Notes: generated from the sequence alone by a model not told the origin. Positions 21,810-63,630 are shown, counted from the stretch's first letter. The stretch: DNA of 64,000 nucleotides from Chloroflexota bacterium (GCA_026707745.1 JAPOWG010000098.1:4241-68240), one strand, 5' to 3'. Numbers and translations: made by a program.

Positions 21810-21896
21810 GCCGCTCGGCGGCAGCGAATTTGGGCTACCGCGCTCACACAAAAGAATAAACCTGCTCGGCTACCGCAAAATCGCGGTCTATTAGAA
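21810..21896 (+). repeat. intergenic repeat family 1, subtype A copy
   Basis: GCCGCTCGGCGGCAGCGAATTTGGGCTACCGCGCTCACACAAAAGAATAAACCTGCTCGGCTACCGCAAAATCGCGGTCTATTAG. It is near-identical to the copies at 56154 and 58931. Confidence 0.85.
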
Positions 21897-22008
21897 ACGA
21901 AGGTCAAGCGCGCGAAGACAGGGCATATCACTGGCTGATTTGTCCTTGATTAGAATTCCATTAAACCCAACGACTTAATCGTTTGATAGGGGCGGAAACG
22001 AGATTGGG

Positions 22009-23253
22009 CTAGCGAGAAAGCACCCTGTTGACGATGCCAAACCAGAATGGCGCGCCTTGCGCCGCGGCAATGACGGTAGCAGCAATACCCAATAGTTTGC
22101 CAAGCAATAGCAAGGGCCAACCGTCTGGATTGTTTTCGGGCAAGTAATTCCACAAATTGTTAGGGTTGCCGCGCGCCGGATGATCGGAGGAATAGATGCT
22201 GAGATCTTCCGCGAACCAACCGATGGGCAGGCGCAGATTCTGGATATCTTGCAGCCTGTTGGCCAGTTCCGCCCCCGTCCCGATGACATCTTCGGCATCG
22301 CTATCGGTTTGTGCCTGGTTTGCAGTAAAGCCTTGGCCCCCTTCTACCGCGTCATTGACCTCGGTTTGCAATTGTCCGCTTTGTACCGAGAAATTCACTT
22401 CGCTGCTGATTTGCTCGCGTCTGATTGGATCTTCCCACAGGGTGCGGGCGATATGCAAGGTGTCAATATTGACTGACAGCGCGATAAGCAGCGCTACGAC
22501 GACGGACAAGGTCTTCATTTTTGCCGCGTAACTGGAGCTGGCGCGCGCCATCGCGCTATTGAACCAGTTTTCCAGGTTGGCACGGACCTCATCCACGGAC
22601 TGCGCGCTGGCCATGACCGCCGACAGCGCGCTTCTGAAATAGGGATTGTCATTCTGGAGCACGCCTGCCATCACAGAGGCGTCATTTGTGGGTTGTAGAC
22701 CCAGTTGACCAATTTGATCGTCGATCTGATTCAAGACATCGGCAAGCGCGCTGCGGACCTGCCTATGTTGAACAAATCGCAGCGATTGCCGCAACTCCGT
22801 CGTGCCTTGGCCCGTGCTCATGACGCGGTTGACCATGAGGCGCAGCCCGCGCCGTTCGGGACCGGCTGGCATTCCGTCAATGATATTGAGCAAGTCGCCG
22901 AACATTTGCTGGTCGGATTCAACTTTCACCGTCTTCAATACGACATCTACAAAGGTCGCCGGTTCAATCCAGTCGACCGTGCCTATCGGACCGCTGGCTA
23001 TTTTCTGCGCTTCCATCTCGGTGATACGCTGGTTCGGCATCACCGGATCCGCCTTGACAAGCTGGATGAGCGGATGGGTATACACTTTGGCGCGCATCAC
23101 CGGGTCCTGTATGATCCCATCCAGGGTATTGCGGAGATTTCGCGATCGTAATCGCGTAGCCCTCGACAACAGAGAGTTAGTCTCCGTTACCAGAATGCTC
23201 AGCAAGATATACACGAAGATCATGCCGACGATGACTTCAACAATTGCAGCCAA
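22009..23253 (-). CDS. hypothetical membrane protein (terminal TM helices, large soluble middle)
   Basis: 414 aa. N-terminus MAAIVEVIVGMIFVYILLSILV and C-terminus LLLLGKLLGIAATVIAAAQGAPFWF are hydrophobic. No family recognised. Confidence 0.6.
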   Translation of the reverse strand: MAAIVEVIVGMIFVYILLSILVTETNSLLSRATRLRSRNLRNTLDGIIQDPVMRAKVYTHPLIQLVKADPVMPNQRITEMEAQKIASGPIGTVDWIEPATFVDVVLKTVKVESDQQMFGDLLNIIDGMPAGPERRGLRLMVNRVMSTGQGTTELRQSLRFVQHRQVRSALADVLNQIDDQIGQLGLQPTNDASVMAGVLQNDNPYFRSALSAVMASAQSVDEVRANLENWFNSAMARASSSYAAKMKTLSVVVALLIALSVNIDTLHIARTLWEDPIRREQISSEVNFSVQSGQLQTEVNDAVEGGQGFTANQAQTDSDAEDVIGTGAELANRLQDIQNLRLPIGWFAEDLSIYSSDHPARGNPNNLWNYLPENNPDGWPLLLLGKLLGIAATVIAAAQGAPFWFGIVNRVLSR

Positions 23254-23340
23254 GCGCGATCCCTTTCGCTGCCGCAGGGTAAGTTTTAGAACATATGTCA
23301 GATTGGAATTTAGTATAGCGCAAGCCTAATTCACCGCAAG

Positions 23341-23964
23341 CTAGAGGTTGATGCTTGCGACAGTGGGGGTGCGCGTGGGAACGGGCGCGATCACGTATTT
23401 CGTGCTTGTCGCCTGTTGTAATGCGGGCATGGCGGTTGATGTGTCGCTCGGGGTAAAGCTCGCGGTTGGCGTAAGGGACGGGGTCGCTGTAGGGGTACGA
23501 GTTGGCGTGTCGGTTGGATAGAGCGCGCGTATGATGTCTTCGTGCATATAGACCGGTTCGAGGCGGCGCGTCAAGGTATTTTTGTCTAGGACATACCATT
23601 CGGAATTGGGCTGCTTGGCGATCACGCAGACGGTCTCGCCTTCTTTGATTGCCTCCACAATTCGACTGTCTGTGGATGGGGACGCGCGAACGATGGCGCT
23701 ACGTACGATGACGACGAATTCCTGGCAGGGTGGTACCGGCGTATAAGTGGGTAAGGGGGTCGGCGCAAGGTACTGAAGTTCCACGATTCTGACGGCGGTA
23801 GCGGTAGTCCGTTCAATGGCCTGTCGTGTTGACTCGACAACGGTAAGGCCGCTGGACATAAAACTACGCAGGCCAATCCACAAGTAATAGAGCCCAAAAA
23901 CGATGGCAATGCCAAGCAAAATCACAAACCAGGATGGCGGTCCTGCGCGTCGGCCGTAAGCCAC
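23341..23964 (-). CDS. membrane-anchored SH3b-like domain protein with a Pro/Thr-rich tail
   Basis: N-terminal TM WFVILLGIAIVFGLYYLWIGL. An SH3_3-like segment VIVRSAIVRASPSTDSRIVEAIKEGETVCVIAKQPNSEWYVL. Tail PTDTPTRTPTATPSLTPTASFTP. Confidence 0.6.
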   Translation of the reverse strand: MAYGRRAGPPSWFVILLGIAIVFGLYYLWIGLRSFMSSGLTVVESTRQAIERTTATAVRIVELQYLAPTPLPTYTPVPPCQEFVVIVRSAIVRASPSTDSRIVEAIKEGETVCVIAKQPNSEWYVLDKNTLTRRLEPVYMHEDIIRALYPTDTPTRTPTATPSLTPTASFTPSDTSTAMPALQQATSTKYVIAPVPTRTPTVASINL

Positions 23965-24191
23965 GATATCCTCTGAAACAATTTGATCTTACGTTAGTCG
24001 ATAAATTGCGCGGCGCAAGCGAGCGTTGAGAAGTCGTCGGATTACGGGCGGTCAGGCGTCCGCCAGCTAGTCAAAAATCGGGTATTGGAGGCGAGGGAGG
24101 GCCAAGCAGCCGCACTGCGGGAACCTGGACAAGTCCCTTCTCATATCGCTTGCATCGTGCATAATAACGGTTTGATTTCGAGGAAGCGCGC

Positions 24192-25094
24192 ATGTGTATA
24201 GGTCGTAGTCTGCGGACTGTCTGTGTCATTGTCGCCCTGCCCCTATTCATATTCTCAACGCAAGGTCAGCAGAGGCAGACGTTGACGATTTATGCAGCTA
24301 CGTCTTTGACCGATGCCTTTGAAGAATTGGCGGCAGTATTCCTTGAGAATCATCCCGAGACGGATATCGTTTTCAACTTCGCCAGTTCATCAAAACTAGC
24401 TGCTCAGTTGCTGGCGGGGGCGCCGGCGGACATCTTTGCCAGCGCCAACAGTTCGCAAATGGATCTGGTCGTTGCGGACGGGCGAATCAGTGAAGGCGCT
24501 GTACAGTCCTTCGCCACGAATCGGCTGGTGCTGATTGCGCCCGCTGACAACCCGGCGGAAATTTCCGGCATTGAAGATCTCGGCAGCAAGACGCTATTGC
24601 TTGTGTTGGCGGTGACCGGCACGCCCATTCGAGACTACACAAACGCCATGTTCGCTTCGCATAACGATGAATACGGAGACGACTTTGCCAAACGAGCGCT
24701 GGGGAATCTCGTTTCCGAAGAAAGCAATGTTCGGCAAGTCGTGGCGCGCATTGCCCTGGGCGAAGCGGATGCGGGCATCGTCTACCAGACGGACGTGACG
24801 GACGAAGTTCGCGACGATGTGATCAGGTTTCCCATTGAAGACCGCCACAATCAGATAGCGTCTTATCCAGTTGCGGCCCTGGACGACACTGCTATACCGG
24901 AGCTTTCCGAAGCGTTTATTGTTTTTCTGAGATCTGATGATGGTCAATCGATTCTGGGCGCTTTCGGATTCTGTTCGCCGTCAAGAGAGGCGGACGAGAC
25001 CACAACCGAGCCCACGGCGGAAACGGGACAAGACAAGCCCATAGTAGTCGAAACGGAAGTAGCGCCTTGTGAAGGTCTGGAAGCTGAAAGCTGA
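24192..25094 (+). CDS. modA: molybdate ABC transporter substrate-binding protein
   Basis: LTIYAATSLTDAFEELAAVF...DIFASAN...GEADAGIVYQTDV is the ModA pattern. GAGGAA sits 5 nt upstream of the ATG. Confidence 0.85.
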   Translation: MCIGRSLRTVCVIVALPLFIFSTQGQQRQTLTIYAATSLTDAFEELAAVFLENHPETDIVFNFASSSKLAAQLLAGAPADIFASANSSQMDLVVADGRISEGAVQSFATNRLVLIAPADNPAEISGIEDLGSKTLLLVLAVTGTPIRDYTNAMFASHNDEYGDDFAKRALGNLVSEESNVRQVVARIALGEADAGIVYQTDVTDEVRDDVIRFPIEDRHNQIASYPVAALDDTAIPELSEAFIVFLRSDDGQSILGAFGFCSPSREADETTTEPTAETGQDKPIVVETEVAPCEGLEAES

Positions 25095-25872: not shown

Positions 25873-25965
25873 CGCAGGTAAAGTTGGCGAGTAGGACATG
25901 CTATTCCCGCGTTTCTGCCCGCAGTTGGGCTTGACCTGAAAGACATGTTCAATCATAGTTAGCGC

Positions 25966-26298
25966 ATGAGCATTGATCTCGTGAACTTCGCCAAAGCGCT
26001 TAGTGACGACACGCGCCAGGAGATTTGCCTCCAGTTGTGCTGCGTATGGCTTAGTGTCAGCGATTTGGTGGATGTGCTTGGCGGCAAGGTAAAACAGCCG
26101 ACGGTGAGCCATCACCTAAAATGCCTGGAAGAAGCAGGATTGGTGCATATACGGCAAAAGGGCCGGCAACGATTCTACACGTTGAATCAAGAGCAATTGA
26201 CCGTGTGCTGCGGGTCTTTGATCAGCAGATTCGCGCCGGATTTCGCGGTACAGCATGATTTTGCCCAGCAACCGCCAGCCGCAAGACACGATACCTGA
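25966..26298 (+). CDS. arsR: ArsR/SmtB-family metalloregulator
   Basis: LSDDTRQEICLQLCC...VSDLVDVLGGKVKQPTVSHHLKCLEEAGLV is a winged helix with the ArsR signature and a CC metal site. Confidence 0.85.
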   Translation: MSIDLVNFAKALSDDTRQEICLQLCCVWLSVSDLVDVLGGKVKQPTVSHHLKCLEEAGLVHIRQKGRQRFYTLNQEQLTVCCGSLISRFAPDFAVQHDFAQQPPAARHDT

Positions 26299-26317
26299 TC
26301 GCGGGCGACTGAATTAG

Positions 26318-28014: not shown

Positions 28015-28017
28015 TCA

Positions 28018-28100
28018 CCTGCTATTGTACGCCGACGGATCTTGCGGACAATTCGAACAGCGCTGTAGCCCGAATTCGCCGGTTACGCGCCGAGCGGCTG
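28018..28100 (-). repeat. intergenic repeat family 1, the single inverted copy
   Basis: The reverse complement reads CAGCCGCTCGGCGCGTAACCGGCGAATTCGGGCTACAGCGCT.... This matches the 5' half of the other copies (compare 36766 and 21810). Confidence 0.7.
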
Positions 28101-28107
28101 TTTGAAC

Positions 28108-29409: not shown

Positions 29410-29483
29410 TGCGCTCGCTTTGGGATCAGTTGGGCGGGGCTTTTGATATTGTAACCAAGCTGACCGCGGGAATACGAATGTTG

Positions 29484-29611: not shown

Positions 29612-29696
29612 TGTGCGTTGGGAGTCGTTATAAGGTATCTTATCCAGAGACAATGCTCGAAATCTCGATTGGTAGATATCAATTTAGGAGCAGAAA

Positions 29697-34288: not shown

Positions 34289-34435
34289 TTTCTTCTCCTT
34301 TAACGGAAATTCTGCACACTCAAAAAAAAGGATGCTACAGTCAGCCCACAAATGTGCCTTTGCAGGTCATGTGTGCTATTATCCTTAATGAGACGCTGCA
34401 AGTCAAATTGTTTAACAGCTTGGTGGTTCAGTTTA

Positions 34436-34534
34436 GCCGCTCGGCGGCGGGGAAAAGGTCACGGGAATGTCTCGCTCACGCAAAATCGTAAGCCGTTTCG
34501 TCGCATGAGCGACGCGGTTTGCGTAAAGAGGAGC
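34436..34534 (+). repeat. intergenic repeat family 1, subtype B copy
   Basis: GCCGCTCGGCGGCGGGGAAAAGGTCACGGGAATGTCTCGCTCACGCAAAATCGTAAGCCGTTTCGTCGCATGAGCGACGCGGTTTGCGTAAAGAGGAGC. Confidence 0.85.
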
Positions 34535-34564: not shown

Positions 34565-35569
34565 ATGCTTTACATAATTGTGCGCCGGATTTTTATTCTT
34601 ATTCCTATGCTGGTCCTGCTGTCGATGATCTCTTTCATCATTATCCAGCTCCCCCCCGGCGACTATCTGAGCAGCTATGTTTTGAGACTGGAAAGTCAAG
34701 GTCTGATCGTTGACGAAGCCGAGATTGCACGCCTCGAACAGCGTTACGGCTTGGGCCAGCCGCTGACCACACAGTATTTCCGCTGGATGCGCAACTTCAT
34801 CGTCAATGGCGATCTGGGAAGGTCCTTTGGATCCTACGGCAGCAGCTACGACAACAAGCCGGTTTCCGACATCATTATGGAGCGGCTGCCGGCGACGATG
34901 ATCATTTCGATCGTTTCGACGATCGTCGTCTGGGCGATCGCTATCCCCATCGGCATTTATTCGGCCACGCATCAGTATTCACTCATGGATTATCTGTCGA
35001 TCTTCATCGGCTTTATCGGCTTGGCTATCCCCAATTTTCTCTTCGCAATCATCATCATGTGGATCGTCTTCGCGCAGACCGGCCATGCCGTCACTGGCTT
35101 GTTTTCACTGGAATACCGCCACGCGCCCTGGTCGATCGCCAAGATCATTGACATGTTGAAGAATGTCTGGGTGCCGGTGCTGGTGCTGGCCACGGCGGGA
35201 ACGGCGGGCTTGATCCGCGTGATGCGCGCCAATTTGCTGGACGAACTGAACAAGCAATATGTGGTCACGGCGCGGGCGAAGGGCTTGAGCGAAAGGCGGC
35301 TGCTGTGGAAATATCCGGTGCGCATCGCCTTCAATCCCATCTTCAGCACGATTGGCTGGCTGCTGCCGGCGATGGTCGGCGGGGAAGCCCTGGTGTCCAT
35401 TATTCTCAACTTGCAGACCATCGGACCCGTGCTGCTGACAGCTGTCTTGCGACAGGATATGTATCTGGCGGGCAGCATCATTATGATCCTCAGCGCCTTG
35501 ACGCTGATCGGAACGCTGATTTCCGATATTGCGTTAGTCTGGCTTGATCCGCGGATTCGTTATGACTGA
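34565..35569 (+). CDS. ABC transporter permease (OppB/DppB-like)
   Basis: MLYIIVRRIFILIPMLVLLSMISFIIIQLPPGDY... and the EAA-like region YVVTARAKGLSERRLLWKYPVRIAFNP. Confidence 0.9.
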   Translation: MLYIIVRRIFILIPMLVLLSMISFIIIQLPPGDYLSSYVLRLESQGLIVDEAEIARLEQRYGLGQPLTTQYFRWMRNFIVNGDLGRSFGSYGSSYDNKPVSDIIMERLPATMIISIVSTIVVWAIAIPIGIYSATHQYSLMDYLSIFIGFIGLAIPNFLFAIIIMWIVFAQTGHAVTGLFSLEYRHAPWSIAKIIDMLKNVWVPVLVLATAGTAGLIRVMRANLLDELNKQYVVTARAKGLSERRLLWKYPVRIAFNPIFSTIGWLLPAMVGGEALVSIILNLQTIGPVLLTAVLRQDMYLAGSIIMILSALTLIGTLISDIALVWLDPRIRYD

Positions 35570-36755: not shown

Positions 36756-36765
36756 AACTGATGCA

Positions 36766-36869
36766 GCCGCTCGGCGCGTAACCGGCGAAAAGGTCACAGG
36801 AATGTCGCACTCACGCAAAATTGTAAGCCTTCTCGTCGCATGAGCGACGCGGTTTACATAAACAGGAGC
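36766..36869 (+). repeat. intergenic repeat family 1, subtype B copy; its 3' end supplies the AGGAG in front of the GH2 start codon
   Basis: GCCGCTCGGCGCGTAACCGGCGAAAAGGTCACAGGAATGTCGCACTCACGCAAAATTGTAAGCCTTCTCGTCGCATGAGCGACGCGGTTTACATAAACAGGAGC, followed by acgcaATG (36875). Confidence 0.85.
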
Positions 36870-36874: not shown

Positions 36875-39421
36875 ATGGGTGAATTGAAAAGCCTGGACCA
36901 GGTTGACCGCGAATTATTCGGACCCGCTCCGTCTCCAGTCAGTGGTCAAGCCGATATGGTTGAGCTTTCACCCGGCAACTTCGGGGATTCAAACGGTCCT
37001 TTGCGCCTGTCTCTCGATGGCGAGTGGCTGATGGCGGAAGGCGGGAGGGAGGAGCAGCGACTTTCTGGGCTTTGGAAAGATGCCATCCCCGCCCTTGTGC
37101 CCGGCAGTGTGCATACCGCCTTGCTCGCGGCGGGCAGGATACCGGATCCCTATGTCGGCAGGAATGACGAGATCGCCAAGAAAGAGAGCTTCAAGACCTG
37201 GTGGCTCATGCGCCGCTTCGAGCGGCCCGCGGAAGTCGCAAATGCGCGGCTTGTCTTTGGCGGGATCTGCGATTCATGCTCGGTTTGGTTGAATGGCGAG
37301 AAGCTGGGCGATCACAAAGGGATGTTTGCCGGGCTGAACTTTGATGTTTCCTCCTGTCTTGCTGAGGGCGAAAACACGATCGTCGTTCGGCTTGATCCGG
37401 TGCCGGTTCGCATCAGCAGCGGCGAACCCAATGACTTTTTCCTCGGGATGAATGTTGGTTGGCTGGATACAGCTATCATCAACAACATCTATGGCTGGCA
37501 CTACATCGATTTGCCCACGCTGGGGATTTGGCGTCCCGTAAGTCTGCGAGAGCAGCCCGAAGTAGCCATAGAAGATCCCTTTGTCGCGACGATGGATGCC
37601 GGCGCCGGGGTCGTCCGGCTTCACACATCGCTGAAAAGCGGCGGCGCCAGCTTATCGGGTAGTCTACGGGGTACGATTGAACCGGAAAACTTCGAGGGAA
37701 ATGCCTACCAATTCAATTACCAGGTGGAAGCGACCGGAAGCAGGCAATCCGTTCTGCTCGAGATGAGGATCCCGGAAGCCAGACAGTGGTGGCCTGTCGA
37801 TTATGGCCAGCCCAATCTATACCGTATGAGGCTGACGTTTGTCTCGGGGGGCAAGGCGCTTGACTGCAGGGACTTCACTTTCGGTATCCGCACCGTTGAA
37901 ATGGCGCCTCTTCCCGATGGGCCCGACCCGGAATTGTACAATTGGACATTCGTCGTCAACGGAAAGCCGATTTTCGTCAAAGGCGCAAATTGGTGCACGT
38001 TGGATGCCTTGCTGCGGTTTGACCGCGAGCGGTACGAGCGTTTCTTGCATTTGGCGCGCGATTCGCACATGCAGTTGCTGCGGGCTTGGGGCAGCGGGAT
38101 GCCGGAAACGGACGAATTTTATGATGTGGCGGACCGCTGCGGCATAATGATTTTGCAAGAGTGGCCCACCGCCTGGAACAGCCACCGCATTCAGCCCTAC
38201 GACATCCTGGAAGAAACGGTGCGCCACAATACCATTCGCCTGCGCAATCATCCTTCGCTGGTGATGTGGGGCGGGGGCAACGAATCAGGCGAGCCCTTTG
38301 GCGAGGCGATCGACATGATGGGCCGAGTAAGTTACGAACTCGACGGCAGCCGCGCTTTCCACCGTGGCGAACCTTGGGGCGGCAGCATTCACAGCTACCA
38401 CGTTTTTTGGCAGCGTCAGCCGCTCTCTTACAATTTCACGCTTTCCGCGCCTTTCATCGGCGAATTCGGCTTGGCATCGGCGCCCAACTACGAGAGCGTC
38501 GAACGCTATTTGCCCGCCGACGAACTGGACGTTTGGCCACCGGCGAGCGACAGCGGGTTTACCCATCATATGCCGGTCTTCAATCTTAAAGCCGAGCAGG
38601 CGATTATGTCGCAGTACGTGGCTGATTTCGTATCGAACGATTCGCTGAAGAACTTCATCCTCGGCATGCAAATGGCGCAAGCAACCGGCATGCGGCATAC
38701 GCTCGAGCTGGCGCGAACGCGCTGGCCGGAAGCGACCGGCGTCTGCTATTACAAGCTGACCGATAACAATCCCGCCGCCTCTTGGGCGACGGTAGACTGG
38801 TACGGCGTTCCCAAGATTGCGTATCACATCTTGCGCCAGGCCTACCGTCCGCTGCATACCTGCGTTTTGTTCAACAGATTGTCATTCGTCGGGGTGCCCG
38901 CGACCTTCCCGGTTTACCTGTTGGACGACAGAGGCGCTCTTGGCTCGACGGACTGGGAAGTACGGGTCCGCGCCTTCGGCAGTGATTTGCATTTGCTGGA
39001 ACAACAGACATACGCAGGTTTTGCTTCGGGCGAACCTGTCCGTCGCCTGGGCGACTTTAGCCTGGACGCGGACCAAACCTGGAATCGCCCTTTGTTTATC
39101 GTTGCAGAGATCCTTACGGCTGAGGGGCTGCGCGATCGTGTCTTTTATTGGCTGAATTATGCGTCCATTCAAGGATGCCTGTTTGACTCGCCGCGGACTC
39201 AGCTTAGCCTTGGACGAGACGATCACGGTCATTTGACAATCAGCAATGCGGGAGGCAAGCCCGCGGTCGGCGTCCACTTTGTCTGTCCCGAATGCTCTGA
39301 CGAATTCAGTTGTGAAGACAGCTACTTCTGGCTTGATCCCGGGGAAGAGCGAAAAATCTTGACGAGCCACCGGGCTGGCGTACGGGTCGCTGCCTGGAAT
39401 GCGGATGAAACGGGACAGTAA
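36875..39421 (+). CDS. glycoside hydrolase family 2 protein, paralog of 29697..32273
   Basis: 848 aa and collinear with the first GH2. By eye, clearly more than half of the positions are identical in the blocks I compared (for example VPGSVHTALL, ESFKTWW, GIWRPVS, LYNWTF..NG.P.F.KG.NWCTLD, WGSGMPETDEFYD, GGGNESG, FIGEFGL). Confidence 0.82.
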   Translation: MGELKSLDQVDRELFGPAPSPVSGQADMVELSPGNFGDSNGPLRLSLDGEWLMAEGGREEQRLSGLWKDAIPALVPGSVHTALLAAGRIPDPYVGRNDEIAKKESFKTWWLMRRFERPAEVANARLVFGGICDSCSVWLNGEKLGDHKGMFAGLNFDVSSCLAEGENTIVVRLDPVPVRISSGEPNDFFLGMNVGWLDTAIINNIYGWHYIDLPTLGIWRPVSLREQPEVAIEDPFVATMDAGAGVVRLHTSLKSGGASLSGSLRGTIEPENFEGNAYQFNYQVEATGSRQSVLLEMRIPEARQWWPVDYGQPNLYRMRLTFVSGGKALDCRDFTFGIRTVEMAPLPDGPDPELYNWTFVVNGKPIFVKGANWCTLDALLRFDRERYERFLHLARDSHMQLLRAWGSGMPETDEFYDVADRCGIMILQEWPTAWNSHRIQPYDILEETVRHNTIRLRNHPSLVMWGGGNESGEPFGEAIDMMGRVSYELDGSRAFHRGEPWGGSIHSYHVFWQRQPLSYNFTLSAPFIGEFGLASAPNYESVERYLPADELDVWPPASDSGFTHHMPVFNLKAEQAIMSQYVADFVSNDSLKNFILGMQMAQATGMRHTLELARTRWPEATGVCYYKLTDNNPAASWATVDWYGVPKIAYHILRQAYRPLHTCVLFNRLSFVGVPATFPVYLLDDRGALGSTDWEVRVRAFGSDLHLLEQQTYAGFASGEPVRRLGDFSLDADQTWNRPLFIVAEILTAEGLRDRVFYWLNYASIQGCLFDSPRTQLSLGRDDHGHLTISNAGGKPAVGVHFVCPECSDEFSCEDSYFWLDPGEERKILTSHRAGVRVAAWNADETGQ

Positions 39422-40458
39422 TGGGCGACTCAACTGGCGCGCGGAAGCAGGCGCAATCGATCATTGATGTGGATAACTTGAGTGTGCACTTTCATGTTGA
39501 CGAAGGCACGCTTAAGGCGGTTGATCGCGTAAGCTTCTCAATCGCCGAGCGGCAGATGTTCGGCCTTATCGGGGAAAGCGGCTGTGGCAAGACCGTGACA
39601 GCGCAGTCATTGATGCGCCTGGTTCCAACGCCGGGAGAGATTGTCGGCGGCAGCATCAATTTTTTCGGCGAGTTGGGCGGTGAAACAGATCTGGTGCAAC
39701 TCGACAAATCAGGTTCGGAGATACGCGCAATTCGCGGCAACGAGATCGCGATGGTCTTCCAAGAGCCGATGTCCAGCTTGTCGCCAATCCACAGTATCGG
39801 CAATCAACTAATGGAAGCGGTGAGGCTGCATGTCACGCGTAACAAGCGGGAAGCCTATGAGATCGCATTGGAAATGCTCGATCTGGTCGGGATCCCCAAT
39901 CCTATTCAACGCATGGGGGAATACCCGCACCATTTTTCAGGTGGCATGCGCCAGCGAGTCATGATCGCCATGGCGCTTTCCTGCCGGCCGCGGCTGTTAA
40001 TCGCTGACGAACCAACGACCGCGCTAGACGTTACAGTGCAAGCGCAGATCCTCGATTTGATCGCGCAATCACAGGCGCAATTCAATATGGCTGTGCTTTA
40101 CATTACGCACGATTTGGGGATCATCGCGGAGATATGCGACAAAGTGGCGGTGATGTATTTGGGACAGATCGTCGAACATGGTTCGGTGCGAGACATCTTT
40201 CACAACCCTCTGCATCCCTATACACGCCGTTTGTTGGCGTCGACACCGCGCATTGGGCAGCGGACGTCTCGCTTGCAGACGATTGAAGGGACTGTGCCGA
40301 CGCCAATTGATTTACCCATTGCCTGCGGCTTTTGCGCGCGCTGTCCGGATCGCATAGACGGATCTTGTGATGTTGCCATGCCGGCGCTGGTGGAAATTGA
40401 AGACAATCACTTCGCGCGCTGTTTTCTGCATGACGAGCGACAGGAAGCCATGCTATGA
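39421..40458 (+). CDS. ABC transporter ATP-binding protein (OppD/DppD-like)
   Basis: Walker A GESGCGKT, signature FSGGMRQRV, Walker [13 protein letters not shown], and a C-terminal Cys-rich Opp-type tail. The start overlaps the GH2 stop (TAATG). Confidence 0.9.
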
Positions 40459-41483
40459 GCGCTCAGCCCATCTTAAAGGTGGAGGGACTGAAGAAATACT
40501 TCCCGGTAGAAAAGGGCTTCCTCCGACGTGTTGTCGGTCAAGTAAAGGCGGTCGACGATGTTAATTTGGAGATCGCTGCCGGCGAGACCCTTGGACTGGT
40601 AGGCGAGTCCGGCTCCGGGAAGACGACGGTTGGCCGCTGCATCTTGCGCGCGCTCAAACCGACGCAAGGTTCCATTCAATTTCAGATCGCTGAGAATCGG
40701 ATCGTCGACATGGCGCAGTTGAGCGACAGAGAATTGCGCGCCGTCCGACCACAGGCCAATATGATCTTCCAGGATCCTTTCTATTCGTTGGATCCACGCT
40801 GGACTATTCTGGATATTGTAGGTGAACCGCTTAAACTGGCAAATTTGGCAAAGGGCAAAGAACTCGAAGATCGTGTGGCGTATTTGATGGAGGTTGTCGG
40901 CCTCGAGGCCAAGCACCTAAGGCGCTATCCGCACGCATTCAGTGGCGGGCAGCGTCAGCGCATCGGTGTGGCCAGGGCGCTTGCGACCAATCCCCGCCTT
41001 ATTGTTGCGGACGAGCCGGTTTCTGCGCTTGACGTGTCGACACAGGCGCAGATACTCAATTTACTGCAGGATTTACAGCGAGAATTTGCTCTGTCCTATC
41101 TGTTTATCGCTCATGACCTGAGTGTTGTCGAACACATATCAGACAGAGTGGCGGTGATGTACGTGGGCAAGATAGTCGAGGTTGCCAAACGCGATCAACT
41201 GTTTTTCTTCCCGAAACATCCCTATACCGAAGCGTTGCTGTCCGCTGTGCCGACCCCCGATCCTGATGTCGAGAAGGAACGCATCATTCTGCCTGGCGAA
41301 ATCGCCAATCCGGCTGACCCGCCCTCAGGCTGCTATTTCCATCCGCGCTGCCGCTATGTAAAGGCCATCTGCCGCGACGAAGAACCGCCCTTGCGTGAGG
41401 TGTCCCCGGGACAATGGACGTCTTGTCATTTCGCGGAGGAACTCAGCTTGGCTGGCGCTCCACAACAGCCGCACGGCGCGTAA
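40455..41483 (+). CDS. ABC transporter ATP-binding protein (OppF/DppF-like)
   Basis: Walker [10 protein letters not shown], signature FSGGQRQRI, Walker [13 protein letters not shown]. It overlaps the previous gene by 4 nt. Confidence 0.9.
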
Positions 41484-41562
41484 CCGGCGAAAAGGACATC
41501 CGCACTCACAGAAAATAATGAACCTTCCGCCCGCCTGGACAAGTCGGTTTACGGTATAGAAG
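41468..41562 (+). repeat. intergenic repeat family 1, degenerate subtype B copy overlapping the last codons and stop of the oppF-like gene
   Basis: GCCGCACGGCGCGTAACCGGCGAAAAGGACATCCGCACTCACAGAAAATAATGAACC...GTCGGTTTACGG. The TAA stop (41481-41483) lies inside the GCGCGTAACCGGCG block. Confidence 0.65.
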
Positions 41563-45222: not shown

Positions 45223-45974
45223 TGGAAAACCAACTTGTCAGATTCTTACCTTGGGATACAAATCACTTCGGACATCGCATCGGTCGCGCCAACATCCGCC
45301 GCCTGGACGAAGCGTCCTGGCAACTGCTGCGGGATGCCTGCAAGCAGATGGAAATAGATTGTCTGTACTTTCTTGCCGATGCCGGAGACTTGTCGTCAAT
45401 AAATGAATTGCAGCGCCACGGCTTCATCTTCGTTGATGTTCGCGTCACTATAGAACGAACAGTCCCGGACGCGGAGACTCCGCCATCTCGGCGCTCTATT
45501 GGGGACGCAATCCTTCGACCGTCCCGTGTTGACGATGTAGAGACCTTGGCGGCGATCGCTCGCGACAGCTTTACGGTGACCCGGTTTTTCGCCGATCCCT
45601 TTCTGGACAATGAAAAAGTCTCTGCTATGTACCAGATCTGGATTACCAAGAGTGTTACCACGGACTTTGCTGATCGGGTGATAGTGGCGGAAGTCAATCG
45701 AGAAAGCGTCGGTTTCGTAACTTGTCACCTGGACAGACATTTGCATGAGGGGAAGATAGCTCTGGCCGCTCTGGCGGCGTCAGCGCGGGGAAAGGGCTAT
45801 TCGGGGGCGATGATACAGCATGCTTTAGAGTGGTTTCGAGACCAAGGAATGGAGCGCGTAAATGTTCCAACCCAGGGCAGCAATATCTCAGCGCAACGGA
45901 TGTATCAGCGTCGCGGCTTCGTGACTCGGTCGACAGAGTTGTGGTTCCACAAATGGTTCCGGACTATGCCGTGA
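45222..45974 (+). CDS. GNAT N-acetyltransferase, WecD (dTDP-fucosamine acetyltransferase)-like
   Basis: The N-terminus LPWDTNHFGHRIGR... resembles WecD. The C-terminal GNAT core reads ...RGKGYSGAMIQHALEWFRDQGMERV...NISAQRMYQRRGF. The GTG start overlaps the previous TAG. Confidence 0.7.
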   Translation: MENQLVRFLPWDTNHFGHRIGRANIRRLDEASWQLLRDACKQMEIDCLYFLADAGDLSSINELQRHGFIFVDVRVTIERTVPDAETPPSRRSIGDAILRPSRVDDVETLAAIARDSFTVTRFFADPFLDNEKVSAMYQIWITKSVTTDFADRVIVAEVNRESVGFVTCHLDRHLHEGKIALAALAASARGKGYSGAMIQHALEWFRDQGMERVNVPTQGSNISAQRMYQRRGFVTRSTELWFHKWFRTMP

Positions 45975-46071
45975 GCGCTCGGCGGCAGCGAAAAGGTCAC
46001 AGGAATGTCCCGCTAACGCAAAATTGTAAGCCGTCTCGTCGCTTGAACGACGCGGTTTACATAAACAGAGC
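45975..46071 (+). repeat. intergenic repeat family 1, subtype B copy, starting immediately after the stop codon at 45972-45974
   Basis: GCGCTCGGCGGCAGCGAAAAGGTCACAGGAATGTCCCGCTAACGCAAAATTGTAAGCCGTCTCGTCGCTTGAACGACGCGGTTTACATAAACAGAGC. Confidence 0.85.
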
Positions 46072-49214: not shown

Positions 49215-49389
49215 GACATCCCTCAGTCTCTTATTTGACAAATCCTCTTGCTCATACAAGGAGAAGGCTTGTTGTTTTGTGTGAGCGCGGCAGATCGACA
49301 AACTGACGCGCTGAAGGATCCCGATGCAACCAACCAACCTGAGCGCCGTATTCGACGAGTAGCAGACAGATTCTGGAGAGCGCTCACCT

Positions 49390-50079
49390 ATGCCACAGCC
49401 GGTAATAAGAGCTAGCAACATCACGCGAAATCTTAAATTGGGCAGCCACCTCGTCCATGCGCTGCGCGGGGTCAATTTGGAGATACTCCCTAAAGAAATG
49501 GTGGGTATCATTGGGCCATCGGGAAGTGGCAAGAGCACGCTTCTGGGAATCATCGGCGGCTTGGACAGCCCGACTGACGGCAAGATCGAAATAGATGGCG
49601 TCGACATCACGCGGATGAGCGAGAATCAACTGACGGACATTCGAAACCGCAAGATCGGCTTTATCTTTCAGTTCTTCAACCTGATCCCCACTTTGACCGC
49701 GCTGGAGAACGTCGCGTTGCCAATTGAATTCGCCCAGGTACCCCGGCACAAACCCAATCGCCGCGCAATGGAGTTGCTCGAAATGCTTGGCCTGGGTGAC
49801 CGGTATCATCATCGGCCGAACGAGCTCAGCGGTGGCCAGCAGCAGCGAGTGGCCATAGCCAGAGCCCTGGCAAACGCCCCGCCGATATTGCTGGCGGACG
49901 AACCTACGGGCAATCTGGATACAGTTTCCGGGGACACCGTGATGGAAGCCTTAAACACGATACGCGATGAGAAGGGGACCACGGTGGTTCTGGTCACGCA
50001 TGATCGCTCCCTGGCGTCACAGATGGATCGCGTGTTGACGCTTGTCGACGGTGTCATAGTGGACGATGCGCCCGGGTAG
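49390..50079 (+). CDS. ABC transporter ATP-binding protein, MacB/LolD/FtsE-like, with no cognate permease adjacent
   Basis: GPSGSGKSTLL, LSGGQQQRVAIARAL, LLADEPTGNLD, and VTHD. The flanking genes are rnj and a phosphoribosyltransferase. Confidence 0.85.
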   Translation: MPQPVIRASNITRNLKLGSHLVHALRGVNLEILPKEMVGIIGPSGSGKSTLLGIIGGLDSPTDGKIEIDGVDITRMSENQLTDIRNRKIGFIFQFFNLIPTLTALENVALPIEFAQVPRHKPNRRAMELLEMLGLGDRYHHRPNELSGGQQQRVAIARALANAPPILLADEPTGNLDTVSGDTVMEALNTIRDEKGTTVVLVTHDRSLASQMDRVLTLVDGVIVDDAPG

Positions 50080-50169
50080 AGTATCCTTTTCGGTTGAAAT
50101 ACTCTTAGCAGGTCCTCGATATGAGATCCTAAACCCAAAATACAAACGTTCTGGTAGAGGCGACTGCGT

Positions 50170-50325
50170 TGCTGTGTCTATGCGCAGCGGTTAGTCGCCC
50201 GCTACTCATCCAGTTTTTACTCGTCGGGCGATCTATCGGGTCGTGTAGACACTGACCTTCGATCGCCCCTGCCGGCTGTCAGGCGGTTGTTTTTCTTTAT
50301 TTCAACCAACTTCGATACACTACCC
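50170..50325 (+). repeat. long copy of the GGTCGCG/ACACTGAC intergenic repeat family
   Basis: See the feature at 10040..10250. It contains GGGTCGTGTAGACACTGACC and CCGGCTGTCAGGCGG cores. Confidence 0.75.
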
Positions 50326-50409
50326 TGTCAGATCGGCGGTTTTCCATGATTACCGCCGCAAGATATAATCTATGGTAGCGAAGTAGGTTCGCCAGCAAAA
50401 GGAATCGCC

Positions 50410-53832: not shown

Positions 53833-53833
53833 T

Positions 53834-56131: not shown

Positions 56132-56153
56132 GCGATTTCCCTCCCATCTTCAA

Positions 56154-56238
56154 GCCGCTCGGCGGCAGCGAATTTGGGCTATCGTACTCACACAATATAA
56201 CAAACCTGCTCGGCTACCGCAGATCGCAGTTTATTAAA
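56154..56238 (+). repeat. intergenic repeat family 1, subtype A copy
   Basis: GCCGCTCGGCGGCAGCGAATTTGGGCTATCGTACTCACACAATATAACAAACCTGCTCGGCTACCGCAGATCGCAGTTTATTAAAG. Its end overlaps the stop of the GT4 gene (56234-56236). Confidence 0.85.
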
Positions 56239-57367
56239 GAATAGGATCTTGCCAGGTGAAATCCTTGCCATTCTGATGCGCATGCCAGGCTTGCTCAACA
56301 AATGCAGTGATTTTCCGGGAAAAGACGCCCGTATCAAATTTGAGCGCATGCCGACGAATCTTCGCCGGGTCGTAAGCGCCGGCGTCAAATCGCGCCATGA
56401 CGGACTTCAGGCTGTGTACGTTCATGCTATCGAAAACTTCGCCGGTGAGGCCGGGCAAGACCGTATCGAGCGCGCCGCCGCCTTTGAAGGCGATGACGGG
56501 GCGCCCGGCGGATTGCGCTTGCACAGTGGTGATTCCAAAATCTTCCAGACCGGGGAACAGAAACGCTCGGCAGCGGGACATCAGCCGGGGCAGATCCTTG
56601 TCGGGCACGTATCCTAGAAACTCGACGTTGTCGCTAGCCAAGGACTTGAGCCGTTCCAGATCGCGCCCGCGACCGGCGATCTTCAAGGGTAGGCCCAATT
56701 CGCTCGCTGCCTGTATCGCGAGATCAATGCGCTTGTAGGGTATCAAGCGAGACACTACCAAAAAGTAATCTTCGATTTCCTTTTCAAGGGCGGGTTGAAA
56801 GCGCGAGGTATCCACCGGCGGGAAGATGATGCTCGATTCGCGGTCATAAAAGGTCTTGATACGCCGCTTTATCGCGCTGCTGATGGCAATGAAATGCGAA
56901 ACGCGTTGCGCAGCTGCATAGTCCCAGCGACGCATCAGCTTGACGAGTGGCCGAATCAGTATCTCTGTTGGCTTGCCCAATCCCTCGCCTGCAAGGTAGT
57001 TGTCGAGTTGCCAGACGTAGCGCGTGGGGGCGAGGCAATAGCAGATATGCACGGTGGAGGCATCGAACTGCAGGCCGTGACAGAAGCCGCTTTTGTTGCT
57101 CAGCACCACATCAAATTCCTTTAAATGCAGCCCGTTCCAGGCTAAAGGATACAAGGGCAAATAAGGTTGATGTCGACGATGAATAATGGGCAGATTATCG
57201 ATCCATAGCGCACGGATATCCCATTGTCGATAGCGTTCCGGCATTTGATCTGGCGCGAAGATACTGGTGAAAATTGGGCTTTGGGGATATTTGTGGACCA
57301 AAACCTCGAGTACGTCTTCCGCGCCGCCGATTTGATTCAACCAGTCGTGAACAAGCGCAATCTTCAA
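56234..57367 (-). CDS. family-4 (GT-B, group 1) glycosyltransferase
   Basis: MKIALVHDWL...GGAE N-terminus. The C-terminal half contains the E..G....EA...G.PVIA-type motif (EDFGITTVQAQSAGRPVIAF). Confidence 0.85.
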   Translation of the reverse strand: MKIALVHDWLNQIGGAEDVLEVLVHKYPQSPIFTSIFAPDQMPERYRQWDIRALWIDNLPIIHRRHQPYLPLYPLAWNGLHLKEFDVVLSNKSGFCHGLQFDASTVHICYCLAPTRYVWQLDNYLAGEGLGKPTEILIRPLVKLMRRWDYAAAQRVSHFIAISSAIKRRIKTFYDRESSIIFPPVDTSRFQPALEKEIEDYFLVVSRLIPYKRIDLAIQAASELGLPLKIAGRGRDLERLKSLASDNVEFLGYVPDKDLPRLMSRCRAFLFPGLEDFGITTVQAQSAGRPVIAFKGGGALDTVLPGLTGEVFDSMNVHSLKSVMARFDAGAYDPAKIRRHALKFDTGVFSRKITAFVEQAWHAHQNGKDFTWQDPIL

Positions 57368-57447
57368 GCCGAACTCCAGTTAATCTGCGCCAGATAATAC
57401 CATAGGTTTGGGACGTGGGTCATCAATAGAAGTTGACTCTATGCAGT

Positions 57448-58843: not shown

Positions 58844-58930
58844 AAAAACAGACTCCTGAATGCAGCTATGATGGTGTCCAAAAAGGCTCTGACTTATGAT
58901 ACGTCTATTTCAAGAAATGTACATGGAACA

Positions 58931-59018
58931 GCCGCTCGGCGGCGGCGAATTTGGGCTATCGCGCTCACACAAAATAATAGACTTGCTCGGCTATCGCAAA
59001 TCGTGGTTTATCAAATAA
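58931..59018 (+). repeat. intergenic repeat family 1, subtype A copy
   Basis: GCCGCTCGGCGGCGGCGAATTTGGGCTATCGCGCTCACACAAAATAATAGACTTGCTCGGCTATCGCAAATCGTGGTTTATCAAATAAG. Confidence 0.85.
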
Positions 59019-59053
59019 GAGTGCCAGGACGCACGCGCCAGGCTCTCGACCCT

Positions 59054-60879: not shown

Positions 60880-60906
60880 TATCCATGCTCAGGATTCATT
60901 CTAACC

Positions 60907-61686
60907 TCAGCGGAAACTTGCGACTAGCCGATTATCGCTCAGGTCAAATCCTGCGAAACTGAAGACCCCGCCGCTGGACTCCACCTGCAACTGTTTTACG
61001 ATTTGCGCGATCGAAGCCTCAATATGTCGGATGCGGTTGCCAAGCGCATTGGCGGGCAGCTCATATCGCAGGCCTCCGAGCGAAACACTGTCGATCTCCA
61101 GAACGTCGCCTTTATCTACCGCCACATGAATTTCGATTGCTTGCCAGACGTTGATCAAATCAAGAAAGGCCTCGCCCGAGATCGTGATGAGTCCGTCGGC
61201 GGCGCTGATTTTCGCTCGTCTTATTGGGCTTCCATGGTCCTCACAGAACCCGGTAAATTGCAGGCAGAGCTTTAGCATGTCCGTATCTCGGAACACGATT
61301 TGAAGAACGCGGGCTCCCAAGGCATCATCCCCGACAGTGACCTCAAGATCTGTGCCCGGGAGCAGATCAAACCGACCGAAATCCCTCGTGATGAATGTGA
61401 CAGGCGAACCTTTGGCCGCGTTAGCCAAAGTAGCGATCGCCTGCTCGGTGACTGGCGCATCTGTTTGGCGAATAGGTTCAAAACCAGTGACTCGCAACAG
61501 GATAGTTGGTAATGCCGGGCTTAGCAGGACGATGGCGACCAAGACGAGACTGACTAGTCCCGCCGCAATCAAGACTATTCCGCAGGTTCGGGAACCGTAT
61601 CTCTTGTTGGAACGTTTTTGGATTTGCAATGATGTACCCGCGCGATAGACGCTAGGGAAGCTTAGCAGCGGCGAGGCGCTCGGCAT
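60907..61686 (-). CDS. hypothetical membrane-anchored protein
   Basis: One TM (CGIVLIAAGLVSLVLVAIVLL) and a soluble C-terminal domain of unknown family. The annotated start overlaps the rmlB 3' end by 35 nt, so the true start may be internal. Confidence 0.5.
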   Translation of the reverse strand: MPSASPLLSFPSVYRAGTSLQIQKRSNKRYGSRTCGIVLIAAGLVSLVLVAIVLLSPALPTILLRVTGFEPIRQTDAPVTEQAIATLANAAKGSPVTFITRDFGRFDLLPGTDLEVTVGDDALGARVLQIVFRDTDMLKLCLQFTGFCEDHGSPIRRAKISAADGLITISGEAFLDLINVWQAIEIHVAVDKGDVLEIDSVSLGGLRYELPANALGNRIRHIEASIAQIVKQLQVESSGGVFSFAGFDLSDNRLVASFR

Positions 61687-62680
61687 ATTGCCGCTTGTAA
61701 TAGTCGAGATAGGCGCCAGTTTTGATCTTTCGCCACCACCATTCGTTTTCCAGGTACCAGCGCACCGTCGCTTCTATACCGGTCTCAAAGTCGTACTGCC
61801 GGGTCCAGCCTAATTGGCGGGCCTTACCCGCGCTCATCGCATAGCGACGATCGTGTCCTTCACGGTCCGGCACGTGTTTGATCAGTGACTGCGGTTTACC
61901 CAGCAACTCCAGAATGCGCTTGGTGACATCAATGTTGAATCGCTGGTTCTCACCTGCGAGATTATAGACCTCGCCCGATTTGCCATGATGTAGAAGGTAG
62001 TCGACGCCAAAAGCGTGGTCGTCGACGTAGAGCCAGTCACGTATCTGCTTCCCATCGCCATAGAGGGGCAAAGGCTTGTCGTCAATCGCTTCTGTCGTGA
62101 AAAACGGGATCAGTTTTTCGGGGTACTGATAGGGACCATAGGTATTGCTGCCGCGCGTGACAACAGTGTCCATTCCGTAAGTCACATTATAGGCGCGGAC
62201 CATCAGTTCGCCCCCGGCTTTGCTGGCCGCATAGGGGCTATTGGGCAGAAATCGATCGTCTTCCGAGGACTGACCCAGATCAATATCACCGTATACTTCA
62301 TCTGTTGAGACATGACAGAAGCGACCGATCCCGTGTTTGCGCCCCTCGTCCAGGAGAATATAAGCGCCGACCACATCAGTGTGAACAAAGGCGTCGGGGT
62401 CCAGAATACTGCGATCTACGTGGCTCTCGGCGGCGAAGTTTACGATCGTATCGATGTTGTAGGCGTTCAGTACTGACTTAATCCTTTCTCGATCGGCAAT
62501 GTCACCACGTTCGAAGTGGTAGTTTTCTTCGTCGCTGACGGAAAGCAGATTGTCTAAATTGCCGGCATAGGTCAGTTTGTCGTAGCAAATGACACGATAG
62601 TCAGGATAGGCTTCGACCATGTGGCGGACGAAGGCGCTGCCGATGAACCCGGCGCCACCTGTGACCAGGATATTCTTCAT
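61652..62680 (-). CDS. rmlB: dTDP-glucose 4,6-dehydratase
   Basis: ILVTGGAGFIGS, VSTDEVYG, and YAASKAGGE (YxxxK), with typical length and C-terminus. Confidence 0.95.
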   Translation of the reverse strand: MKNILVTGGAGFIGSAFVRHMVEAYPDYRVICYDKLTYAGNLDNLLSVSDEENYHFERGDIADRERIKSVLNAYNIDTIVNFAAESHVDRSILDPDAFVHTDVVGAYILLDEGRKHGIGRFCHVSTDEVYGDIDLGQSSEDDRFLPNSPYAASKAGGELMVRAYNVTYGMDTVVTRGSNTYGPYQYPEKLIPFFTTEAIDDKPLPLYGDGKQIRDWLYVDDHAFGVDYLLHHGKSGEVYNLAGENQRFNIDVTKRILELLGKPQSLIKHVPDREGHDRRYAMSAGKARQLGWTRQYDFETGIEATVRWYLENEWWWRKIKTGAYLDYYKRQYAERLAAAKLP

Positions 62681-63501
62681 TTTTGAGCCGCCTTTTCTCC
62701 AAGCACGAATTCTTCCAAGGCAACCGCAACGCCGTCTTCATCATTGCTCGGAACGATGACATCCGCTACATCCTTTAGCATCTGGGTCGCGTTGCCCATG
62801 GCAACGCCGATGCCGACGGCTTGCAGCATCTCGGTGTCGTTTTCTCCATCGCCGACAGCCAAGGCCCTGGAGGGGTCAATGCCGAGTTCTTCCAGCAATG
62901 TTCTGACTGCCTGTCCCTTGGATGTATTCGGGGGCAGCACTTCAATCATGCCATCTACATTGGCGCGCGTCACATGTACGGCGCCATCGAGCCGCGCGTC
63001 AATCGCCCGTCGGAGCGTCGTGACCCCGTTTTCCTCGCCGTAGAGAACAACCTTGTTGATATCAAAGGTATCCAGGAGTTCGGGCCAATCGGCAATTGTT
63101 TCCACATGCGGCTCGCCATATTCGGTCAATTTGGCCGCGAAGTCATCGACGCGAAGGGCGAAACAGCGGTTGCCACTATAAGCCAGCGCGCCGAATCCGA
63201 ATTCTTCTCCCAGCGAAATGACACGCGAGACTGATTCCTTGGCCATGACGATCCGTGTACGAACGCTTCCATCAGCATTGTAGGTAATGAGTCCCTGCAT
63301 ATAGATGCCCGGCGAGTTTATACCAAGCGAGTCGATCAAGTCTTCGGCCGACTGACGCGTCTTGCCAGTTGCCAATACCACTTCCACTCCCTGTCGCTGT
63401 GCGGATTCAATGGCGGATCGATTGCGAACGCTCAGCGCATGTCGGCTGTTTAGCAGGGTGCCGTCCAGGTCGAGTGCGACAAGCTTTATCTCGTTGTTCA
63501 T
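62677..63501 (-). CDS. Cof-type HAD-IIB family hydrolase (sugar phosphatase-like)
   Basis: The ATG at 63501 (MNNEIKLVALDLDGTLL) is preceded by GAGGA. The C-terminus reads GDGENDTEM...GVAMGNA. The track ORF extends to 63609 over a repeat element. Confidence 0.85.
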   Translation of the reverse strand: MNNEIKLVALDLDGTLLNSRHALSVRNRSAIESAQRQGVEVVLATGKTRQSAEDLIDSLGINSPGIYMQGLITYNADGSVRTRIVMAKESVSRVISLGEEFGFGALAYSGNRCFALRVDDFAAKLTEYGEPHVETIADWPELLDTFDINKVVLYGEENGVTTLRRAIDARLDGAVHVTRANVDGMIEVLPPNTSKGQAVRTLLEELGIDPSRALAVGDGENDTEMLQAVGIGVAMGNATQMLKDVADVIVPSNDEDGVAVALEEFVLGEKAAQK

Positions 63502-63534
63502 AGAGGATTCCTCTGTCCGTTTCTGAATGTGCCG

Positions 63535-63630
63535 GCCGCTCGGCGCGTAGCCGGCGACAAGGTTTGCCTCGCTCACACAACATAATGAACTTTCTTGTTG
63601 CTTGAGCAACGCGGACTATAAAAAAGAGGG
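63535..63630 (+). repeat. intergenic repeat family 1, divergent subtype B-like copy
   Basis: GCCGCTCGGCGCGTAGCCGGCGACAAGGTTTGCCTCGCTCACACAACATAATGAACTTTCTTGTTGCTTGAGCAACGCGGACTATAAAAAAGAGGG. It ends at the stop codon of the gene at 63631. Confidence 0.8.

Follow-up and report, generated by a model that had tools for sequence, protein, structure and literature searches.

A high-copy intergenic repeat in a genus of Chloroflexota is probably a miniature derivative of an IS110-family insertion sequence

The window analysed here is a stretch of 64,000 nucleotides (C22:4241-68240) from the draft genome of a Chloroflexota bacterium (G000; 4.89 Mb in 118 contigs), and our subject is a short intergenic repeat, about 90 nt long, that is dispersed through it. 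The window holds eight full copies of this repeat, all on the + strand, plus two - strand fragments (28059-28106 and 49224-49294). A preliminary description made from the sequence alone had listed nine copies; all nine are present, but the one near 28100 is only a 5' fragment rather than a full inverted copy, and a - strand 3' half at 49224-49294 had been overlooked. The common blocks reported there (GCCGCTCGGCG, CGCTCAC(A/G)CAAAA and CG(C/T)GGTTT) are real, as are the two subtypes, A and B, which repeat-finding in the window recovers as separate repeat families. The copies and their immediate surroundings are as follows (^ marks a junction here and below).

21809..21899, + strand: subtype A copy between two minus-strand genes; starts at the flanking AG; 3' end mutated to CG.
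28059..28106, - strand: 5' fragment, previously taken for an inverted copy.
34435..34530, + strand: subtype B copy with a bipartite 3' hairpin; GAGCG follows it and, at 34565, the next gene starts.
36765..36865, + strand: subtype B copy with a long 5' module, upstream of the GH2 gene.
41467..41559, + strand: diverged copy overlapping the stop of the upstream gene (open reading frame (ORF) 40455..41483).
45974..46068, + strand: subtype B copy whose left AG is formed by the A of a TGA stop (45972-45974) and the next G.
49224..49294, - strand: 3' half fragment.
56153..56242, + strand: subtype A copy within the 3' end of the minus-strand gene 56234..57367.
58930..59019, + strand: subtype A copy; site empty in relatives (GGAAT-AG^AGCGCC).
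63534..63626, + strand: copy with inner stem GTTGC/GCAAC; left core mutated to GG; site empty in G012 and G041.

The repeat is a mobile element and its copies are insertions. In five relatives whose flanking sequences are 81–91% identical at 56153 and 58930, both copies are absent and the flanks abut precisely, the first of these empty sites reading TCAAG^AGGATC. When the joined flanks of 32 further copies were queried in G012 and G041, about a dozen more clean empty sites were found, some of which are filled in one of the two relatives only. The empty site reads ...N-A-G^R... in 12/12 resolved cases and the filled site ...AG-[ CCGCTCGG......(A/C)A ]-AG-R... in every resolved case, such that the element is flanked by AG on both sides where the empty site has a single AG. 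There are no terminal inverted repeats, the ends CCGCTCGG... and ...TTAAAAAAG not being inverted repeats of each other, and no target-site duplication of fixed length, only the 2-nt core being repeated. Copies arranged head-to-tail in tandem have one AG in common at their junction, and certain copies are nested in others.

These insertions alter the ends and leaders of neighbouring genes. The copy at 56153-56242 replaces the last 11 codons of the minus-strand gene 56234..57367; in the five relatives this ORF is 11 codons longer and extends into the start region of the gene that follows, and in G000 a TAA within the inserted copy terminates it. Two insertions lie within Shine–Dalgarno sequences (AG^GAGCG...ATG and AG^GGGAGCC ATG), where the duplicated AG restores the site. 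An ORF start lies 3–16 nt downstream in 30/158 copies with resolved ends (~19%), including the copy at 36765-36865, whose terminal AG combines with the flanking GAG to give AGGAG, 6 nt before the ATG at 36875, exactly as had been described for the GH2 gene. The coincidence of element ends with stop codons, also remarked upon previously, is indeed seen, but as a by-product rather than a feature in itself: insertion follows AG (the AG of TAG, or that formed by TGA with a following G), and the A/T-rich tail of the element carries stops that end any incoming reading frame.

A profile built from the eight full window copies was searched with nhmmer against the G000 contigs in two rounds, returning 334 and then 341 matches, of which 286 are near full length; this number is far above chance. 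The core of the repeat, counted from CCGC through the final AG, has a median length of 88 nt. Subtype A copies are a median 91% identical to their subfamily consensus, the remaining copies 80%. For the placement of copies relative to genes we relied on our own crude gene calls (3926 genes, 86% coding). Outside G000, an exact-pattern scan named only metagenome-assembled genomes (MAGs) assigned to Chloroflexota / Anaerolineae / 'Phototrophicaceae', and the isolate and MAG names, on which alone this point is judged, suggest that the hosts are sponge-associated. BLAST found the element in 14/24 sampled genomes of the same genus and in 0/16 of other genera. By these sequence searches the family is confined to a single genus of Chloroflexota (Anaerolineae) MAGs, within which its abundance differs widely: across 68 genomes of the genus, counts of the 12-mer AGCCGCTCGGCG run from background (~5–10) up to 268, with 268 in G053, 213 in G000, 152 in G081, 139 in G061, 116 in G068 and 110 in G012. 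G068 and G041 are the same genome, G041 being the complete chromosome.

The 3' domain of the repeat is a bipartite hairpin, consisting of an 8–9-bp outer stem, an internal loop and a 5–6-bp inner stem. The compensatory changes proposed for this hairpin were tested statistically on 37 gap-free copies, using 500 shuffles and slid controls. The fraction of paired cells is 84.6%, against 79.2 ± 0.7 in the shuffles, and 44 cells are changed on both sides, against 20.3 ± 3.3; the latter figure was reached by 0/500 shuffles, and the slid controls gave 10–19. Double changes occur at 5/9 pairs of the outer stem (columns 46-54 with 74-82) and 4/6 pairs of the inner stem, thus the covariation stands. The 5' hairpin GCCGC-TCG-GCGGC is invariant and so carries no information on covariation, and a competing 7-bp pairing, GCGGCAG/CTGCCGC, has no double changes.

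Such covariation, together with a G.T wobble fixed in the outer stem of most copies and the ~19% of resolved-end copies that sit 3–16 nt before a start codon and contribute to the Shine–Dalgarno sequence, speaks for an RNA element of the plus strand, structured and under selection, that would act as a small RNA, a leader or a processing signal; the preliminary description had hinted at function as a plus-strand RNA. We consider this very unlikely. Apart from the one fixed wobble, G.T-type and A.C-type mismatches in the stems are roughly equal, and in minimum free energy (MFE) folds the bottom strand does at least as well as the top, with neither strand clearly better. Rfam 15 gave no match in the window at gathering scores, and at E<=5 only isrK, at 12.7 bits. 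On account of this mismatch balance, bottom-strand folding and lack of an Rfam match we see no evidence for a plus-strand RNA function. The copies are moreover decaying, lineage-specific insertions absent from orthologous sites, and among those lying between two same-strand genes 107 are sense and 75 (75/182) antisense to both neighbours. RNAalifold returned no structure on all copies, because these are too decayed. Finally, the covarying outer stem is accounted for in another way, as the subterminal repeat of an insertion sequence (IS).

That no transposase lies nearby, as had been stated, is true of the window, but an IS110-family element with the same ends as the repeat is present on another contig, C81, of the same genome. 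Searches with PF01548 detected a single IS110-family gene in G000 as against ~21 in G001, with smaller numbers in certain other genomes. The G000 recombinase ORF (L208:817-2040, - strand) encodes 407 aa and matches PF01548 with 70.4 bits and PF02371 with 33.9 bits; phmmer gave no match between the recombinase and any solved structure in the Protein Data Bank (PDB). The IS is 1.59 kb long (1558–1591 bp in the 19 copies fetched from G001) and comprises a 1.2-kb recombinase gene between a left non-coding end of 282 nt and a right end of 85 nt, without terminal inverted repeats. Read in the + orientation of the preliminary description, the G000 element starts ...AAAAAAG^CCGCTCGCACGTTTAGAACTTGGCTCACACAAAATAACGAGCC... 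and ends ...GGCTCGTTAAAAAAG^AGG, and the G001 copies have the same ends. Alignment of the repeat with the IS reveals four coinciding blocks, namely CCGCTCG, GCTCACACAAAAT, the A(G/A)CC arm and the terminal GG(C/T)T(C/T)(G/A)TTAAAAAAG, and the nhmmer profile of the repeat detects the central block beside the IS in both G000 and G001. The match holds for subtype A-like ends; for subtype B no parent IS was found. The IS arms AACGAGCC and GGCTCGTT, which lie 1.5 kb apart, match the position of the outer stem of the repeat, so that the 8–9-bp outer stem corresponds, on this alignment, to the subterminal inverted repeat of the IS.

Elements of the IS110 family lack terminal inverted repeats, recombine at a core dinucleotide and carry covarying subterminal repeats (PMC11208160). 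The recombinase is encoded opposite to the + orientation used above, and the flanking dinucleotide is therefore CT in the orientation of the IS. All of the G001 IS copies (19/19) read CT-[IS]-CT, and the miniature copies, with one CT on each side as against a single CT in the empty site, bear this same core-dinucleotide signature of IS110 recombination.

The insertion sites of the IS were examined alongside its non-coding left end. In G001, 19/19 copies occupy one target, ...CTG(C/T)G(C/T)CT-CT-[IS]-CT-GTGGTGAA..., which is the reverse complement of a second genomic repeat, here called R2, ATTCACCAC-AG^AGGCRCAG. Examples of R2 in G000 are found at C19:3000, C86:29563 and C107:16383; it contains GGGATTCACCACAGAGGCACAGAAGTAGTTGCAGGTAAGTCATGCAA plus CACAGAG-rich variants, and the window has no full copies. 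The left non-coding end of the G001 IS holds GCGCCT^ACCACAG, in which the left target, in the sense direction, precedes the core and right target in reverse complement. In the single G000 IS the equivalent segment is GCGTCC^AAAAAAG and the flanks are ...GCGTCCT-CT-[IS]-CT-TTTTTAGTAAACC, altered because this IS inserted at the terminus of a miniature copy already present in R2. The left-end segment thus changes together with the flanks between the 19 G001 copies and the G000 element, the pattern expected of the target loop of a bridge RNA, for which the sequence makes it a candidate. Further along the left end, a conserved CAAAAAAAG could pair with the donor's CT+TTTTTT and is a candidate donor guide.

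Miniature copies also occur within R2, in 45/276 cases and in the same relative orientation as the IS. At the other miniature sites the left flank is A at -4 in 68%, A at -2 in 94% and G at -1 in 99%, and the right flank is a purine at +1 in 79%, G at +2 in 49% and G at +3 in 50%. These non-R2 sites are nearer to the R2 target than are random intergenic AG sites (p = 2e-9 on the left, 1e-6 on the right) and, by this sequence comparison, look like off-target versions of the cognate site.

Taken together, we put at about 75% the probability that the repeat is a MITE-like (miniature inverted-repeat transposable element), non-autonomous, internal-deletion derivative of an IS110-family IS with a bridge-RNA-guided DEDD recombinase. 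Read in the recombinase orientation, a miniature copy would derive from the two extremities of the IS, ~14 nt on the left (CT^TTTTTTAAYRARCC) and ~60 nt on the right (...GGYTYRTTATTTTGTGTGAGC...GAGCGG^CT), with a small hairpin taking the place of the former 1.2-kb recombinase gene and 280-nt left non-coding end, the candidate bridge-RNA region. Copies would be mobilised in trans by the IS recombinase and its bridge RNA; published work on IS110 elements shows that a donor of ~22 bp spanning the core suffices if the bridge RNA is provided in trans (PMC11208160). The cognate target would be R2, most miniature copies having presumably entered degenerate versions of it, A-N-AG^R-G-G, including Shine–Dalgarno sequences, where the duplicated AG would rebuild the ribosome-binding site. 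Many copies are probably relics, as the IS recombinase is missing or fragmentary in several high-copy genomes. The preliminary description had set a plain decaying MITE against its own proposal, and half of that picture is what we find: the repeat is a decaying miniature element, but its pairing and its orientation are non-random.

Several observations weigh against this origin. Only ~16–22% of miniature copies lie in R2, against 19/19 for the IS, and the remaining copies have in common only the core and 2–4 neighbouring bases, which is much looser than published bridge-RNA specificity. Subtype B ends ...GTAAACAG, not ...TTAAAAAAG, and its donor guide would have to be a different one; no matching parent IS turned up, and such an IS would be expected to have the end CT^GTTTACGTAAACC.... 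G041 (a complete chromosome), G053 and G081 contain many copies and no homologue of the IS recombinase, and G012 and G061 contain only fragments of one; G001, conversely, has ~21 IS copies but few miniature ones. The bridge RNA itself is inferred from sequence matches alone, the MFE folds of the two IS left ends (G000 and G001) disagree, and no Rfam model matched.

The loose sites could also be read as informative in their own right. The ~230 copies outside R2 may record natural relaxed integration by a bridge recombinase, needing the CT core and 2–4 adjacent bases and polar with strand composition, although we would regard this as rather unlikely. Such a relaxed mode could be the same as a pathway put forward of late for IS110 elements, in which only the top strand is integrated and replication completes the process. 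If the relaxed mode exists, miniature donors could spread genome-wide, ribosome-binding sites included, with the full IS confined to one programmed target.

The orientation of the copies bears on the same question. The preliminary description noted that eight of nine copies share one orientation regardless of gene strand and suggested a comparison with GC skew. The bias is present in the window and weaker genome-wide, where orientation follows the sign of the local skew (±20 kb) in a ratio of 186:100 (65%; Fisher p = 7e-7). The ratio is 84:27 where the absolute skew exceeds 0.03 and 56:14 (80%) for subtype A, which still gives 18:2 where the flanking genes are on the other strand. A logistic model predicts orientation mainly from skew, after correction for coding-strand composition (0.75 ± 0.15); the strand of the flanking genes adds nothing significant (0.13 ± 0.14), in keeping with the claimed independence from gene strand. 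Skew is positive over most of the window, which accounts for its eight + strand copies. It goes negative at the 3' end of the window; beyond that end, the next copies (C22:82480-82700 and 88845-89330) are mostly on the - strand (4/5) and include head-to-tail tandems.

On the proposed IS110 origin, an asymmetric target would set the orientation of each copy, and orientation would follow GC skew in part because the purine-rich target and R2 are commoner on the G-rich strand. The target AG[AG]G is only 55–57% on that strand, so availability explains part of the bias and not all of it. It is possible, if doubtful, that selection, or insertion tied directly to replication, and not just the strand distribution of targets, produces the bias. 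This would fit the 72–82% agreement among copies with resolved junctions and the 80% of subtype A, both above the level expected from AG[AG]G availability, the persistence of the bias with flanking genes on the other strand and after correction for coding-strand composition, and a preprint according to which an IS110 element integrates predominantly on the top strand, although to link top-strand integration with the strand polarity of the copies is speculation. It is countered by the bias of R2, the cognate target, whose own orientation follows GC skew (62:25), by a trend of orientation bias with copy quality that is not significant, and by the complete chromosome G041. There, copies agree with local skew in 14/20 sampled cases, but orientation does not sort into two replichores; the skew is patchy, so that this test is not clean. 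Across 40 sampled 20-kb regions of the 4.55-Mb chromosome (G041:C1) the sign of the skew changes every 100–300 kb, with no two clean replichores, which suggests frequent inversions or a skew that is not purely replication-driven. Any contribution of replication in addition to the target would be speculative.

Strand polarity of this kind is also documented for transposition of the IS200/IS605 or RAYT type (PMC3971601, PMC10055086), in which a Y1 HUH transposase inserts single-stranded DNA (ssDNA) 3' of a short motif on the lagging-strand template. A relic of such a transposon, either an IS200/IS605 miniature (PATE) or a repetitive extragenic palindromic (REP) element mobilised by a RAYT, would share with our repeat the subterminal hairpins and head-to-tail tandems, the lack of terminal inverted repeats, an insertion point 3' of AG with AG also at the end of the element, and a top strand that lies on the G-rich strand, like that of IS200-family elements (PMC3971601). 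However, neither G000 nor the other high-copy genomes have a Y1 transposase, and no TnpB was found; among 61 genomes of the genus the only one with a Y1 transposase, G023, is itself free of copies. The left-flank motif is fixed at only 2 nt (AG), the left hairpin begins directly at the junction and not ~20 nt inside, copies are single or head-to-tail without inverted REP pairs, and the ends match an IS110-family element instead, a match that largely refutes such an origin. We consequently dropped this origin, for want of the two enzymes and with IS110 ends in hand, and regard it as very improbable.

The only PF01797 match in G000 lies at the C-terminal end of a conserved response-regulator fusion of ~640 aa, with FVY in place of the HUH motif and Phe in place of the catalytic Tyr. 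Elsewhere in the genus, G023 excepted, the PF01797 matches are of the same degenerate kind. This protein (C81:~18700-20545; L001:1-1845) is encoded beside polA and consists of a receiver, a long low-complexity linker and the C-terminal Y1-transposase-like domain; it recurs across many genomes of the genus, irrespective of how many copies of the repeat they have, and on its sequence could be a domesticated hairpin-DNA-binding domain.

Other candidate partners were sought in the same way. No IS607-type serine recombinase was found in five genomes, the control matching in 12/14 genomes, and reverse transcriptase is absent from G000 and G012; two relatives contain ORFs of ~985–995 aa with a reverse-transcriptase domain (G041:C1:3008174-3008593 and G022:C2:909326-909721; L160 and L161). 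A search for Y2/IS91 transposases gave no match, but its control likewise matched nowhere. Paralogue clustering of our G000 ORF calls revealed no multi-copy protein. Genes bracketed by copies in G000 are ordinary housekeeping genes, none of them partner-like; a 5' half and a 3' half lying 530 nt apart on C98 were considered as a gene-bracketing element and rejected, since other repeats and no gene lie between them.

The last of these points also bears on the idea that the hairpins are recognised by an ssDNA nuclease of the Ssn/NTS type, or by some other host protein, and spread or persist by that means. In subtype B the inner stem opens with CGTC, like the CGTC-tagged repeats of that system, and the element is likewise polar and of high copy number (PMC11893778). 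The sole GIY-YIG (PF01541) match in G000, G012 and G053, however, is a UvrC-sized ORF of ~640 aa (499 aa in G053, where it is cut), no small Ssn-like gene was found in these three genomes, and no partner-like gene is flanked by copies. We judge this explanation extremely improbable.

A further dispersed repeat in the window, with long inverted copies (5666-5718 / 10153-10205, and 10060-10318 versus 50064-50335), is unrelated to the element.

If the IS110 derivation is correct, it has consequences beyond this genome. Bridge recombinases are under development as programmable genome-editing enzymes, and their natural behaviour has been little studied. The genus provides a natural data set in which a guide-obeying IS (19/19 in one target) exists beside miniature donors that number in the hundreds, share its ends and occupy degenerate sites, many of these miniature insertions having dated empty sites in sister species. 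Such a data set can show how much target pairing the enzyme needs in vivo, how a family that lacks inverted repeats gives rise to MITEs, and in what way such elements reshape 5' leaders and the ends of genes in these Chloroflexota. For annotation, much of the intergenic repeat content of these genomes is explained, and caution is advised against calling them small RNAs.

Among the closest known systems is the IS110 family (IS621 and relatives; Durrant et al. 2024, PMC11208160), with which the parent shares the DEDD_Tnp_IS110 and Transposase_20 domains, a long left (282 nt) and short right (85 nt) end without terminal inverted repeats, a CT core on both sides, a covarying subterminal inverted repeat, and the targeting of a genomic repeat by an element whose left-end segment matches both target flanks. 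Its subterminal repeat of 8–9 bp is of the length seen in the IS1111 group, and its end lengths are those of the IS110 group. The window feature differs in being a gene-less derivative of ~90 nt, present in hundreds of copies at sites far more degenerate than those of the IS. Classical MITEs (Correia, ERIC, RUP) are similarly short, high-copy, intergenic and non-autonomous, with effects on neighbouring genes and modular subtypes, but are bounded by terminal inverted repeats and by the target-site duplications that DDE transposases produce, neither of which is found here. PATEs and other IS200/IS605 miniatures, and the REP/REPIN-RAYT systems, are likewise small, hairpin-ended, strand-polar intergenic repeats without terminal inverted repeats; our repeat differs in having no Y1 transposase or RAYT, no REPIN-style inverted pairs, and ends homologous to an IS110-family element. 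One IS110-associated MITE is already on record: MITEPpu9 of Pseudomonas putida, a MITE-like companion of the IS110-family element ISPpu9, is non-autonomous, bounded by IS110-family-like left and right ends and presumed to be mobilised in trans (PMC12288879). MITEPpu9 carries the small RNA gene ssr9, has 8 copies and targets REP/BIME sequences (PMC12288879), whereas the repeat described here has no recognisable gene, reaches ~100–290 copies per genome in several species and occupies many non-cognate sites, ribosome-binding sites among them. Provided that its derivation holds, we would class the repeat not as a new RNA gene but as a new, very high-copy case of a known but barely documented kind, the IS110-derived miniature element.

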